In this document: piece after piece, positions 7,457 through 41,909 of the stretch
How the letters are laid out: every line of letters starts with the position of its first letter
Position numbering within the stretch: position 1 is the stretch's first letter
NCBI GenBank assembly: GCA_001724265.1
Contig: MEDY01000505.1
Coordinates: 1-42,763 of the forward strand
DNA: 42,763 bases
Source of the DNA: Rhizaria sp. SCN 62-66
Lineage: Eukaryota
Direction: 5' to 3'
Translations under genes and position numbers: made by a program
The notes under the pieces: generated by a model
The model's database searches: none
Told to the model about the DNA's origin: nothing
What the model saw: only the letters and a program-made list of their open reading frames with translations

Positions 7457-10153
7457 TTAGCCGAAGCTGATCTCAGTAGAAGGAGCGGCGCGGGGCTTAG
7501 TAGCAGAACCCCCAAATGTGAAGGCGCCGCTCTTATACTGGGCTGCAGTGGCCACGAGTCGCTCAACCTGTTTGCGGGCCCTTGAGGACATCGAACCGGC
7601 ACTCGCGGCGGCGACTTGAGCGACGGGCTCGATCTCTTCAGCAATTGTTGTCTTGACGGGGTCCGCGTAAAAGTCGGCGTCAAAAAAGGCGCACAGCGTG
7701 CGGGCGTACAAGGACGAGAGGGAGCGCGGCGGGGTATTTGCCGCAGAGGGCAGCAGAGACAGGACTTCCGCGCGGCCGCGCAGCAGCGCAGGGGCGTCTT
7801 TGTGCTCGGCCACGATGAGCTGCCGCAGCATCCAGTAGAGCGCTGAGCACATGTCGTGCTCGCCGGCGACGGCCACGGCCATGATGTCTTCGACTGTGCG
7901 CGGCAGCAGCTTCTGCAGCAGCGCCACCACCTTGGCCGTGTCCGCAGGCTTTAGAGGGCAGGGCTGCAGCGGCAAGAGGGTGCCCAGGAACGACAGCGCG
8001 CTCAGCAGCGCGCCACCGTCGGCCGCACCCGAGACTACCTGGAGCGACAGCGCCACAGCGTCACTCATGCCCGGCCACGCGCCCATTTCTTCACGCAACT
8101 GCATGTAGGGGTTGCACTTACAGTCAAAGACCTCAAAGTTGAGCTGGCCCAACAACTGCAACAGCACGAATACGTATTCCTTGTGATAGCGCAACGCAAG
8201 GGTTGCACTGAGAGTGCCTTTCGCGGCGGTGGGGACTCGGGCAGCGAGCGCAACAAGTGCGGGCAAGGCAGTCTTAACGCCGTCGGAAAAAAAACAGCAT
8301 GACACCGGGGTCTTGCTGCGCAGCGCGTCACGGTGGACGCTCACACGCAATGCGTTGTAGTGCATCAGCACAGCGGTAGCCACGCGGTGCGGCCATGAGC
8401 GCAGTGCGGCGCCGCTTAAGCCCAGAGTGAGCTCAAGCCAGCGGGGGGCCAGGTCGTCGCTCACGACGGGGCGGCCAAAAACATTCTTTTGTGCATCCAT
8501 GAATGCCGCGGCAAATGCGTCGCAGCTGCGCCACAACAGGTTATTGTCAAAATGCGGGTACTGAGGTGCCGCAGCAACAAAGCCTTTGCCCTTGCCCTTG
8601 CTCTTAGTCTTGCACGCAACGTCGTCCGTAGTCGAAGTCACGAGCGGGCGGTGCGGTTTCAGTGCATAACGTGTCAAGGCGATCATGTTTTCAGGACGCG
8701 AGGCGTGCCTGCGCGGCCGTCCTTGCGTCTGGTAGTTGGAGCCGCCAACGGGAACACCACCACCGAAGCTGAGGGCACCAAAGGGAGGGACTGCTGAAGA
8801 TCCGAAGCCACCGATGGATAGGGCTGCCGAGCTGGCTGAAGATCCGAAACCACTTAAGGCAGGGACTGTCGAGCTGCCTGGAGATCCCAAGTCAATAAAG
8901 CCAAATACACGTGCCGAACCTGTTGAAGGGACACGGGGTTGAAACCTGGGGAAAGCGTATAGCGATCGATAGGCTTGAGCGAAAGTCCCGCTCCCATCAC
9001 CCACGACATCACCCAGGTCGCCGACGCCTGCCATTCCCCGGCGTTCGCCGTCTGCCGCTGCAAAACCAGAGGATGAAGTAGGGGCACCACTCGGGCCGGC
9101 TGTAGCGCCACCAATAGCACCGAAAGAAGGGACGCCGCGCGGTGCGTTAGACGTAGTGGAAGTCTAGTAAAAAGAAGCCGATGGATTATGAGGGGGGTCA
9201 ACGCGGTGAGCACCTAAGGGGTTTGAAGGTGGAGCATTGGCGTACAAGGGCCTCGAAGTGGCAGCAGGCTCGGCCTCTTGGGCGTCTGCGTCTGCGTCAA
9301 CATCTGCGTCCGCGTCAGTGTTAGCAAACGTGTCGAGGTTGCCGCGGCAGCGCGCCGCGGGGGCCGCTGCTGGCGTGACGGCGACCGCGGCGGCGGGCGT
9401 GAGCACGTAGCGCGCGTCGTCGCCGGTCATGAGCGCGTCGGCCAGCTGCGCTAGACGCGCGAACACGAAGCCCGCCGCCGGCCGCGACAGCGTGAATCGC
9501 GGGTCGCTCGGGGCCGCGCGCGGAGGGGACGTGGCGGCGCGGGCGAGCGAGGAGGCGGCAAGAGGCGCGCCGTTACCGCCGCCAAAGACGCTGCCGAAGC
9601 GAGTCGAGGCTCCTTCACCAATGGTGTTCGTGGCGTTGGGCGAGGCGGTCCCAAAGAAGAAGCCGGTGCCAGACTGCGCGTCCCCACCGGCCGCAGGAAC
9701 CGCCTCGGCAGAGATAGAGCGCGTGGGTGAAACCGCGGCGATGGCGGCCGCAGGCTCAAAGAAGGCCTTGAGGTACTCGTCGATTTGCGGGACGCAACGC
9801 ATCAGCTGGCGGTGCGCCGTGAGCACAAGGCGGAAGCGCGCGAGCTGGAAGAGGGCCTCGGCCGCGGTCACGCGCGTCAGGTCGTCGCGGCTGTGGAGAA
9901 GAGGGAACACAAAGCTAGCAACGTCGTGCTTCCCGAACAGGTTGCTGATAGACTCATCGAGCGAAGCAGCAACTGCGGAGACGGTGCCATCGCGATTTGT
10001 GCCGACGTTGGCACGATGCCGACCGAGGGTGCGGAGCGCTTTCGAAAGCAGCCCAAGTTTGGTTGCCACGTTCTCGCCAGTCATGAGAGCAGCCAGCAAC
10101 GCGCGGAGGGCCTAAAGCGCCATCTCAACAGCAGCCGGACTACCTTTGGTCAT
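7457..10153 (-). CDS. Unknown ~898-aa protein with helical (ARM/HEAT-like) segments and FG-containing linkers; two in-frame TAG codons
   Basis: Single frame from ATG 10153 to TAA 7457, interrupted only by TAG at 10112..10114 and 9164..9166. It joins track ORFs 9164..10099 and 7457..9034 through an open 43-codon bridge. Leu/Ala amphipathic helices are present. The exact gene model depends on how TAG is read. Confidence 0.65.
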
Positions 10154-37405: not shown

Positions 37406-40400
37406 ATGTCGTCCTCGGCCTCGTCGTCCTTTGCTGCCGCGGCCGCGGCCGTCTCCGGGCTCGGCCCCGCCGCAGCCACCGCCTCCGCGGCGCCGCTGTA
37501 GTACGCGGACGAGACTTGGGACGCCGACGACGCCGAGTTCAACCTGCTGCATCAGCATATTGCGCTCGCGTTTGCCCACGAACAAGAACAGCAACACGAC
37601 AGCAGCCACCACAACCACGGCAACGGCGTTGGCCACGCGAACACGCAAATGGGCATGGGTAACAGCAATGTTAGCGGCATTGTTGGCCACGGCTACAGTG
37701 ACAGGGGCGGCTCTGCTGTGGCTGCTGGAGGCTACAGCGGCTTCAACAGGAGGTCGAGCAAGCACTTGCCTGCGCCGCACAGCTGCAGCCCTGCAAGCCA
37801 CGGCAGTCGCAACAGCCTCAACGGCCCGAACAGCTACGACTTGAGCAGCAGTCACGGCAGACACTAGCCCCATTATCGACATCAACCGCACCCGCGCACG
37901 GAAGCTCGCCAGAGAGGCACCCTCACCGCACATAACAACAACAGCGGCGGCTTCGGTAACAGGAGCAGCGGTCAAGTGAGCGGCGTCTATGACGGCAGCG
38001 GAGATACTCAATATGGACCCCCCGAGTCTCCTTACATGACTGCCGCTGCTTCCCACACTCACAGTCAGAGTCACAGTCGCTCGAGCTCGAGCTCGAGCTC
38101 TAGTTCTAGCCCTAGCTTTAGCTCGAGCTCTCGTCAGAGTTACAGCGCAAGAAACAACCAAAACAACAGCAACAGCAGCAGCAGCTTCAGTAACCGGAAC
38201 AGTCTCAGCAACAACGAGCTGCATTTGAACGGCGCGTATGACGGCACTGCTGCTGCGGCTGCTGTTGTTGGCGGCTTCACGCACAACAGCTCTGCCAGAG
38301 AGCGCAGCTACAACAGTAGTCGCAGCAACTTCAACGACGCGCACGAAGCTGAGTCTGCCGCCGAGGCCGAGGCGGAGACTGAGGCCGAGGCGGCGGCGGT
38401 CATTGCCGAGTACATGACGCGTGTTGGCGCCGACCCCACCGCCGCGCTCTTGCCTCACTGCAACAGCGGCCCTCCCGGCAGCCACGGCGACAACGACGAC
38501 TGCAACAGCAACAGCAGCAGCAGCAACAATAAGACGTCGTACGCCGCGCTCAGCCGCGCCGCTGCGGCCCACGTCAGCCCTCTGTTCGGCAGCAGCGGCG
38601 CCGGCTCTGGTCCGCAGCGTCGCAGCAGGGGCGTGGGCATGTACGGCTTCGATACCGAGAGCTACAAGCACGAAGCCGTGGCCAGCGGACGCTACAAGGC
38701 GGCCACGGACGCGGCAGCAGTCGCGGCGGCCAAGAGGCGCGCTAGCGCGTCCGCAGCAGCAGCGGCAACGGTAGCGGCAGGTAACAACAACGCCAGCAGC
38801 AGCGCAAATAACAATTCGAATCCTGCCAATGCTGCTGTTGCAACTCAAACTGCTTCTGAAACTGCGGCCGCGACAGCGCGGGCCCCCAAATCGGCCGTAG
38901 GCGCGGGCGCGGCGGCGGGCTACCGCGCGGCGGTGGTCTATGGAGTTGCTGCCGCGGCACCGCTTCTGTTCCCGGCCTCGGACGGGCTGCCTGCCAGCGC
39001 CAGCGAAGTGTGTCTGCTGCTCGGGGCCGCGCGGGAGAAGGCGGAGGCCGCCGCCAAGGCCAAGGCCAGGGCCAAGGCGGAGGCCGCCGCTGCGATGAGC
39101 AAGACGAAGACTGCTGACGCGGTGTCTGCGGCCGCAATCAATAACATCAGCAAGAGCAAAACTAACGCGGAAACGGAGAGCGCGACTACGACGGAGACGA
39201 CGATTTCAGCGCCCCAGCAGCGGCTGCAGCGGTCGATCGAGACGGGCCTAGCCTTGTGGCGGCCGCTCGCCTCTGCGCCGCTGCTGGCGCTGGCGCTGCC
39301 TTCAGATGCGGATTATGCCCCCGGTACGTGCGACAAAGCAAAGACATTACTTGTATATGTCATATTAAACAGAATTAATAACACTCCCTAACTTATGCAC
39401 TTTGTTTTAAAATTATTTTAGTGTTCATTTAAGCTATAATTTGAATCATTTCTCACCAACTACGTATATGCCCTCAAATATCTCATTTTGCTGTTGACCC
39501 ATGACTGCAGGCGCGAGCGCCGCCGCGGTGGCCTCGCGCATGCAGGCCGAGGAGGAGGAGCGGCGGATGCAGCTGCGGGTGGCGCAGCGCGTGCGCGAGT
39601 TGCGCGAGAAGCGCGAGCGCGAGGCGCGGGAGCGGCAAGTCGCGGTGCTGCGGACAGTTGTGGCCGAACAGAAGCGGGAGCGGGCGGAGATGAGGGAGAA
39701 GCAGAGGCAGGAGCAGGAATCGGGGCAGGGGCTCAAAACCAACGGCAACGGTGCTGCAAACACGGGCGTTGATACTAGAGCTATCTCGAACTTTCGCTCT
39801 AGCGCAATCGCTCCCGACTATGGCTCCGGCGGCTCGAATGCAGCGCCTGCTTCTGACTCCATGTCCGCCTCCGTCTCTGCCCCGTCGCCAGCGCCGCCGG
39901 CGGTCGTGCCCGCCGTGGCCGCTGTGACCGCGGTGCCGGCAGCGTTGGCGGAGGGCTGGGTGCCGCTGAGCGACACCGGCCGCCGCAGCCTTGCGCTGAC
40001 GCTCGCGGTGCCGCCGCCGCCAGGGCCAGGAGGGCAGGGGCGTGATCACGGCCACAGCCGCGGCCACAGCGTTCACAGTCACCTTGATCACGGCCACAGC
40101 CACGGCGGCCACGGGCACGGGCACAACTGCAACGCGAGCAGTGCCGCTTCTACTGCTACGACTGCGACTGCCACTGTCACTGCCACTGTCACTGCCACCG
40201 CCACTGCCACCGCCTCTGCGACGGCGACTGCTACTGCTGCGACAGCGGCCTGGCCGGCCTCTCTGCACGCCCGCCTGACCGCCGCGGCCGCGGTGGCCGC
40301 CGCCGAGACACAGGGCCACCGCCGGGAGCTGGAGGACCGTGAGCGTGCGGAGGCGAGGCTGGCGGCTAAACTTAAACACGGCGCCGCCGAGGAGGGCGCT

Positions 40401-40933
40401 GCGAGTAAGCAGCAGCAGCAGCAGCAGTTGCAAAAGCAGTCACAGCTCTTTGACTACGACTTAAGTAACAATTATGCTAACAACAAGAGTTATGGCAATG
40501 GCAACAAAACTGATGCCTTTGACTTGAGTGGCTTTGACCAGTTCGACGACACCTATTACGGTGTCCTGAGCAACAACAACAACGGCAGTAGAAACCGCGG
40601 CACGCGTCCCATGAGTGCCCACACAGATGCGACGGCAATCATCAGCAACAGCAACAACACTGCTGCACGTGCTGCAAATACGAATACTGCCGCGAACGCT
40701 CGGCACCGGCCCTCGAGCGCGTTTGCGAACACTCAGACATATAATAACACAAACTCTGTCAATGGCAGGAGCTACAGCAACCGCAACAGCAACGACAGAG
40801 GTGGCTTAAGCAGCACTGCTCCTGTAACTGCGTCTCCCCTAGCTCCAACAGCAGCACAGCAGCAGCAGATGCCCCCGCATTCTCTGCCTCGCACTCAGTC
40901 ACTGAGTTCGAGCGCGCAAATGCAGCAGCTCCT

Positions 40934-40966
<33 letters not shown>

Positions 40967-41909
40967 GTCTCACTCCCCCCGCACTGCATACCCCGTCGCG
41001 ACAACCACCGTCAGCGCACCAACCGCATCAACTGCGCCTGCTACCTCACCTGCGACTGCACTCGCCCCCCGCGGCCCGCCGCCGCGCGTGTTCGGCTACC
41101 AGCCCAGCGACACGCCGCTGCAGGCACTAGGGCTGCCGTCACCGCCGTCGTCCGCGGCGGCCGCGGCGGCCGCGGCGTCCGTGGCCAGTGCGGCGGCCGC
41201 GGCGGAGGCGGCGGCCGCGGCGCTGGGGGCAACTGTGTCGGCGGCCACAGCGGCCGCGGCGGCCACAGGGTCAGGCGCCAGGAGCAACAAGAATAAGAAC
41301 AAAGACAAGGCCACCGGCAGCTTTGATGCTGCTAAAACTGAAGCCAACGATCCTGATGCTGGGGGTGGCACTGGCAACGGCAACGTGAGCGGTAACATTG
41401 TCAAAAGGCCTGCTACAACCTCCGCCAAGCCCGCCGCCAAGCCCAACACGTACGCCAACACCAGCCTGAGCAGCGGCGGCGGCAGCAGCGGCGGCGGCGG
41501 CGGCGGCGGCGGCGGTGGCAGTGTCACAGCGGTCGCGACCAAAGCGCGCGCCCGCGTCGACCCAGCCCTCGCAGCCGCCCTCGCGAGCGCTGGCTCCAGC
41601 AACAGCAACAACAACAACTTTAACTCCAACGCGAGCGCGAGCACGAGCTCTACTAGCAGCAGTGTTGGCGGCAAGCTGACCGTTGGCAGCGCGCAGGCGG
41701 CCAAGCTGGATCACTGGGCCTCTGTCGGGGCCTGGGGCGGCGGGCTGACGGCGCACCCGCTGGAGCGCGAACGGCTGAGCTGGGGCGCCGTCGTCGTCGG
41801 CGTCCGGCGCCAGGAGCATTGGGACCGCGTGACCTACGGCATCAAGGGCGGCGGCAGCACCGGCAGCGGCAGCGGCAGCAGCAGTAGCAAGAGTGCGAAT
41901 GCGGAGTGA
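37406..41909 (+). CDS. Unknown ~1438-aa low-complexity/coiled-coil protein with two in-frame TAG codons near the N-terminus
   Basis: Exons 37406..39323 and 39511..41909, phase-1 GTACGT..CAG intron, stop TGA. The frame from ATG 37406 is continuous with track ORFs 37649..37867 and 37976..39391 except for TAG at 37499..37501 and 37865..37867. Confidence 0.75.

Follow-up and report, generated by a model that had tools for sequence, protein, structure and literature searches.

UAG is probably read as glutamate in the genome analysed here, by a tRNA-Glu with a CUA anticodon that does not wobble to UAA, with UAA and UGA ending the genes; codons 32 and 154 of the gene described below would both be Glu. 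In-frame TAG codons are present in conserved genes, a Glu-like tRNA gene with the matching anticodon exists, and TAG is nearly absent from gene-end-like sites. The window (the whole stretch of DNA analysed, 42,763 nucleotides) is contig C505 of a eukaryotic assembly of 34.9 Mb in 714 contigs. About 935 kb of sequence (2.7% of the genome) was examined, made up of 400 kb at fixed positions, the window, and the loci found in family searches.

We propose a variant nuclear code in which genes would end in UAA or UGA and UAG would serve, at low frequency, as a sense codon, mainly for Glu. A Glu-type tRNA(CUA), from a single gene and presumably expressed and charged by glutamyl-tRNA synthetase, would compete with eRF1 at UAG. 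UAA would remain a stop because the CUA anticodon does not wobble-pair with it. The TAGs in the window would then be ordinary uses of the codon, so that exon 1 would be translated through from its ATG, with Glu as the predicted residue at both.

Two in-frame TAG codons in the window gene

The frame opened by ATG 37406 contains two TAGs within one exon, exactly as the first-pass annotation had claimed. It lacks TAA and TGA before 39389, and joins the open reading frame that the standard code gives at 37868-39391. The features are as follows.

37406..39323, + strand: predicted exon 1, encoding a low-complexity protein rich in Ala, Ser, Asn and His, with two in-frame TAGs
37499..37501, + strand: in-frame TAG, codon 32; not acceptor-like; predicted Glu from the genome-wide evidence
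37865..37867, + strand: in-frame TAG, codon 154; not acceptor-like; predicted Glu
39324..39510, + strand: predicted GT-AG intron, phase 1, which would link exon 1 in frame to the open reading frame 39498-41909
39511..41909, + strand: exon 2, which ends in TGA and contains no TAG

The intron boundaries were read from the sequence, with a donor GTACGT at 39324 and the acceptor at 39510. The two exons together would encode a low-complexity protein of 1438 residues.

Neither TAG has the look of a splice site, in agreement with the first-pass annotation: the 30 nt on the 5' side contain 2 and 4 T respectively, compared with 8-18 in 12 putative acceptors of the same genome that were chosen by eye. 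The only single GT..TAG intron that could take out both TAGs (37498-37867, 370 nt) was considered and rejected, as it shifts the frame into TGA 37977. The flanks had been described as having coding-type composition. This holds for the stretch between the TAGs, which has a coding score of 0.15 and wins the six-frame contest by a margin of 0.16 at 61% GC, but not for the first 31 codons (margin -0.04) or for 37868-37975 (score -0.13), both of which lose the contest. On a related point, the donor of eRF1 intron 1 (L079:5490, - strand) is GTCCGT and not GTR, and hence the donor patterns of this genome are looser than had been assumed.

No Pfam family was identified for the target exons, none of the 281 candidate homologs from a metagenome scan was confirmed, and an Atlas search with the C-terminal 87 residues gave no usable match. 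Two DNA matches to the gene within its own genome were discarded: L002 consists only of a GCC repeat, and L003 vanished on re-alignment. Because the gene has neither a Pfam family nor a relative, the residue was worked out from the rest of the genome.

The window contains a second gene with two in-frame TAGs.

10153..7457, - strand: second window gene, ending in TAA, with no Pfam family
10112..10114, - strand: in-frame TAG, codon 14 of this gene
9164..9166, - strand: second in-frame TAG, with a T-rich upstream sequence, which may instead be a splice acceptor

TAG as a probable sense codon across the genome

In the fixed-position sample, coding carries on in the same frame past 5 of 9 TAGs, compared with 0/22 for TAA and 0/21 for TGA; the sense controls GAA and CAA gave 205/279 and 146/227. 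A heuristic search over about 2.7% of the genome returned 88 gene-end-like stops, comprising 44 TAA, 42 TGA and 2 TAG, and of these two TAGs the first resembles an internal codon and the second an antisense frame. UAA and UGA are thus retained as stops, and UAG is effectively unused at gene ends. The pattern differs from that of the peritrichs and Blastocrithidia, where UAA is also Glu, since TAA is here the commonest gene-end stop, and stops with coding sequence on both flanks number 32 TAG, 2 TAA and 1 TGA. This last count includes about 7 sites retrieved because they contained a TAG, as well as a small number of antisense frames, both of which flatter the p value of about 0.001 that it gives against a nonsense-mutation model. 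TAG is also the stop most easily reached by mutation, accounting for approximately 68% of single-base nonsense changes. For both reasons the 32:2:1 count is treated as supporting evidence only.

More weight attaches to the position of TAG inside conserved genes. In-frame TAGs are found in genes for eRF1, Thg1, SUV3, UBE2J1, a CaMK-like kinase and a chromodomain protein, all of which are otherwise intact as read. The TAG in SUV3 recurs in another contig (L160), which is identical over 2001 bases and possibly comes from the same sample. The annotated start of the database protein P0429 is a Met lying 3' of the kinase TAG, an example of how standard gene callers truncate the genes of this organism.

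TAG is nevertheless very rare: in the fixed-position sample, with 80,984 coding codons, there are 3,140 Glu codons and no more than 21 candidate TAGs, or less than about 0.7% of Glu codons. A search for WD40 repeats found no stops in 149 matches. Several TAGs in other family searches were set aside: those in the kinase matches L069, L070, L074 and L075, and in two of the three helicase matches, are splice acceptors or intron sequence, and those in L076 and L077 lie inside introns.

A tRNA with a CUA anticodon

The genome has a tRNA gene cognate to UAG.

G000:C84:76008-76080 (= L087:1489-1561), - strand: tRNA(CUA) gene, found by pattern and by ARAGORN, and scored at 58 bits by Rfam

One copy was found; a T run follows it, and its neighbours are intron-style GC-rich genes. 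ARAGORN gives the label Pyl to any tRNA with a CUA anticodon.

On comparison with 45 other tRNA sequences of the same genome, the tRNA is closest to tRNA-Glu(CUC) (51/73 identical), followed by Lys(UUU) (49), Glu(UUC) (47), and Gln(CUG) and Asp (both 44). The first five pairs of its acceptor stem are common to both of the genome's own Glu tRNAs. Its 20-nt D-arm was located at no fewer than 130 prokaryotic or viral loci, and among the matches listed it belongs to tRNA-Glu in 124 of the 125 tRNAs called. It has U11-A24, U13-G22 and A46 and lacks base 47, features described as determinants for E. coli GluRS (PMC9976931), which we assume to be relevant to the eukaryotic enzyme. Plain minimum free energy folding did not produce a cloverleaf (z -1.5), and the covariance model returned one. 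Judged by sequence, the tRNA is of Glu type, and in that case it would be a natural amber-suppressor tRNA-Glu.

The search pattern demanded an anticodon loop ending in AAA, which a Gln-derived tRNA would escape, and 63 of 506 tRNA candidates were scored. At these 63 places no second suppressor tRNA was seen (C509 was judged by pattern match), and no tRNA with a UUA anticodon was among those found.

The tRNA combines a D-arm identical to that of many bacterial tRNA-Glu genes with a U1-A72 acceptor like those of the genome's own Glu tRNAs. It reaches 59/73 identity with the bacterial set, a figure biased by the selection of that set through the same D-arm. It may have originated as an old paralog or by transfer.

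eRF1

One eRF1 was seen, carrying an in-frame TAG; the other two of the three matches in the eRF1 search look like pelota exons. The substitutions T32S, G57S and L124M are each unlike all 117 of 117 homologs, and T58K is unlike 116. T58K and L126M are shared with the relative P0004, which keeps T32 and G57. The protein retains E55, Y125, N129 and a hydroxyl at position 32. T32, the residue in contact with the G of UAG, is replaced by Gly in Iotanema spirale (PMC5304391). In human eRF1, T32S is largely neutral, and L124M occurs together with three other changes in a mutant that recognises only UGA (PMC3632111). The eRF1 of the present genome may therefore still recognise UAG, and competition between it and the tRNA would be in line with how scarce TAG is.

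We consider it reasonably likely that the genome represents an early or weak stage of a UAG=Glu code, as suggested by a tRNA with a bacterial-like D-arm, a near-standard eRF1 and very low use of UAG, in an uncultured and probably non-ciliate wastewater protist. UAG may still be partly ambiguous, in which case the ambiguous-intermediate model of code change could be tested on an extant eukaryote. With so rare a codon and only mild changes in eRF1, the genome offers a natural test of stop-codon capture.

The residue predicted at UAG

Two conserved sites point to Glu. The TAG in eRF1 falls in the column of human E107, where 120 homologs have E in 109, D in 10, V in one and Q in none; the closest relative, P0004 (84% identity), is the one with Val at the TAG site. 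In Thg1 the TAG occupies the Glu of an SD[E]YSF motif, which is Glu in 4/4 PDB sequences and Gln in 0/4, and the Pfam score with each residue placed at the TAG is 88.4 bits for E, 85.3 for D, 84.6 for Q and 84.3 for K. Two further columns have an Asp majority: UBE2J1 (D74, H16, S12, E7 and Q0 of 117) and SUV3 (D91, A8, E5 and Q3 of 120). Asp-majority columns hold the genome's own Glu residues in just 3 of 30 cases. In the kinase, the 17 CaMK orthologs of at least 50% identity have Q in 6, K in 4 and E in one.

Pfam bits were summed by hand over 8 sites in intact-looking genes, which is about the full number of informative residue sites; three of the 11 scored sites were dropped, being a ubiquitin copy (L132), a likely pseudogene (L072) and its paralog (L073). 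The sums are E 503.1, D 497.4, K 496.9, Q 496.8, S 492.5 and L 484.3, so that Glu leads Asp, Lys and Gln by 5.7-6.3 bits. Including the dropped sites gives E 748.7, Q 742.2 and D 741.0. More than half of the lead comes from Thg1, and the sums without it are E 414.7, K 412.6, Q 412.2 and D 412.1. Taken together, Glu alone would appear to fit the Glu-, Asp- and Gln-type columns.

The sequence contexts of 48 candidate TAGs, a set not purged of acceptors and antisense frames, are intermediate between those of Glu and Gln and fit neither (z -3.8 and -3.1). Several TAGs lie inside poly-Gln runs, and CAG faces TAG in paralogs of the ubiquitin copy and of L074, among the matches listed in a paralog scan dominated by antisense frames. 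The first-pass annotation had read TAG as Gln on the basis of a local near-repeat, RH-x-PH, in which the other copy has CAA. The near-repeat is indeed present, but it says little in favour of Gln: the third base differs in all four shared codons (4/4), and TAG and CAA differ at two bases. Extending the repeat argument to the genome yielded 8 comparable pairs, none of them Gln-Gln, too small a number for a test. Under this codon usage, CAG ranks first or second among the codons from which TAG arises in one step (21-47%), and this can explain both the repeat and the Gln-like contexts in which some TAGs do sit.

Among the dropped loci, L072 (C148) and L073 (C49) belong, with L074 (C9), to a kinase and Sel1-like repeat family in which codon bias is weak and TAG is overrepresented. 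L072, which in addition to its TAGs contains a TGA in frame and seems to have undergone a frameshift, is likely to be a pseudogene. L132 (G000:C681:3012-3227) is a ubiquitin copy with an in-frame TAG, where five paralog loci have CAG. It is possibly part of a mobile element, and to us its fused tail recalls the chaperone domains of phage tail fibres.

Alternative readings

The alternative that fares best, though we regard it as unlikely, is that UAG is ambiguous: mostly Glu through the CUA tRNA, partly Gln (through a near-cognate tRNA-Gln(CUG) or a further Gln-type CUA tRNA) or Asp, and partly stop through eRF1. The intermediate contexts and mixed E, D and Q columns would suit it, but the mutational supply from CAG alone predicts Gln-like contexts. 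The great rarity of TAG and an eRF1 that keeps E55, Y125, N129 and the hydroxyl at 32 are also in keeping with it, whereas TAG is tolerated at the motif Glu of Thg1 and in eRF1 itself. Coverage of 63 of the 506 tRNA candidates leaves room for a Gln-type tRNA, although no second suppressor was among those scored, and an engineered human tRNA-Glu(CUA) is reported to insert about 95% Glu (PMC12204705).

It is very unlikely that the window TAGs go untranslated despite a changed code, through a later start, splicing, a broken allele or an assembly error, or that the code is standard and every TAG is a nonsense mutation or an error. Under the standard code eRF1 would end prematurely at residue 107 and Thg1 within its active-site motif, and the dedicated CUA tRNA, the near lack of TAG at gene ends and the coding-like stretch between the two TAGs all argue against these readings, the support for which comes from the 0/281 confirmed homologs of the window gene, the mutational reachability of TAG and the pseudogene-like L072. 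The genome-wide evidence supports the first-pass statement that TAG is translated.

The accompanying suggestion, that it is most simply translated as Gln, is not supported. A genome-wide UAG=Gln code, as in I. spirale, is highly improbable: Gln is found in 0/120, 0/117 and 3/120 sequences of the deep columns (eRF1, UBE2J1 and SUV3) and in 0/4 for Thg1, where Glu is 4/4; it lies 6.3 bits below Glu in the Pfam sum; and the CUA tRNA found is Glu-type, not Gln-like. Against this stand the local repeat, the TAGs within poly-Gln runs, the CaMK orthologs (6/17) and the ubiquitin paralogs. The loci examined show neither the conserved Gln columns nor the Gln-derived CUA tRNA of the Iotanema type.

Asp is just as improbable, since despite the Asp-majority columns of SUV3 and UBE2J1, the Asp in kinase paralogs of L073 and the G73 of tRNA(CUA), Thg1 and eRF1 favour Glu, the Pfam sum is 5.7 bits under that of Glu, the tRNA is only 44/73 identical to the genome's own tRNA-Asp, its anticodon is two changes from GUC and one from CUC, and G73 is also present in the genome's own tRNA-Glu(UUC).

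Relation to known codes

To our knowledge, UAA and UAG nearly always have the same meaning in nuclear codes.

UAG is Glu in Oligohymenophorea sp. PL0344, in which UAA is Lys and UGA is the stop (PMC10553269). As described there, the CUA tRNAs are also nearest to the organism's own tRNA-Glu (69-93%; 51/73, or 70%, here), and Asp is likewise the second-commonest column. The differences are that PL0344 has recoded UAA and has 10,160 Pfam-aligned UAGs and 10 CUA tRNAs, whereas the present genome has UAA as a stop, few TAGs and, among the tRNAs scored, one CUA gene. In peritrich ciliates and Blastocrithidia (PMC11687900, PMC5304391, PMC12153298, PMC12152300) UAG is again Glu, but UAA is recoded too; in Blastocrithidia UGA is recoded as well, and UAA has a dual meaning.

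Codes in which only UAG has changed are reported for the rhizarian exLh (Leu) and I. spirale (Gln) (PMC5304391), and for phyllopharyngean ciliates (Leu, Gln), Protocruzia tuzeti (Gln) and Scotinosphaera (Ser) (PMC11687900). These share with the present genome a sense UAG with UAA and UGA as stops, and two ciliate MAGs with a UAG-only change have CUA tRNAs, as here. The residues in the systems listed are Leu, Gln and Ser, in contrast to Glu here, and the T32G of the I. spirale eRF1 contrasts with the conservative T32S.

In the mostly open-access literature searched on code variants and CUA suppressor tRNAs, no code was found that makes UAG Glu and keeps both UAA and UGA as stops; in those sources, UAG is Glu only where UAA is recoded as well. 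The code proposed here is thus probably a new variant. If true, reassignment of UAG alone to Glu would call for a further code table and would be one more case in which the two codons were uncoupled independently, apparently outside the ciliates.

The organism and other loci

Words sampled from the genome match 14 sequencing runs, with at least half of the words present in 4, one of which is possibly the source. Leaving that one out, three runs in three studies (bioreactor, wastewater and unlabelled) contain 0.68-0.85 of the sampled words; a polyA run (X5) has a share of 0.30. A quick tree of UBE2J1 gave a long branch without placement. GC-rich exons and introns of 100-400 nt would speak against a typical ciliate. 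A sainouroid affinity is no more than a guess. The genome of Rosculus vilicus is reported as 40.8 Mb with 37.7% GC (PMC10770858), a GC content unlike that of the present genome. Environmental relatives are represented by P0004, P0245, P0247 and P0248, with identities of 84% for eRF1 and 78% for SUV3, and their SUV3 loci gave no convincing in-frame use of TAG.

The ubiquitin genes L133-L135 (C3, C651 and C182) encode divergent monomers, extended by Met-Ser at the N-terminus and by a tail of three residues at the C-terminus. No polyubiquitin repeat was present among 23 ubiquitin matches, and C3 has three ubiquitin genes in tandem. The SSU rDNA (L131, G000:C706:4459-8903) is highly divergent and approximately 4.4 kb long. 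Several of its inserts resemble group I introns by eye, and one of these may contain a homing-endonuclease frame. This AT-rich contig may be foreign to the genome.
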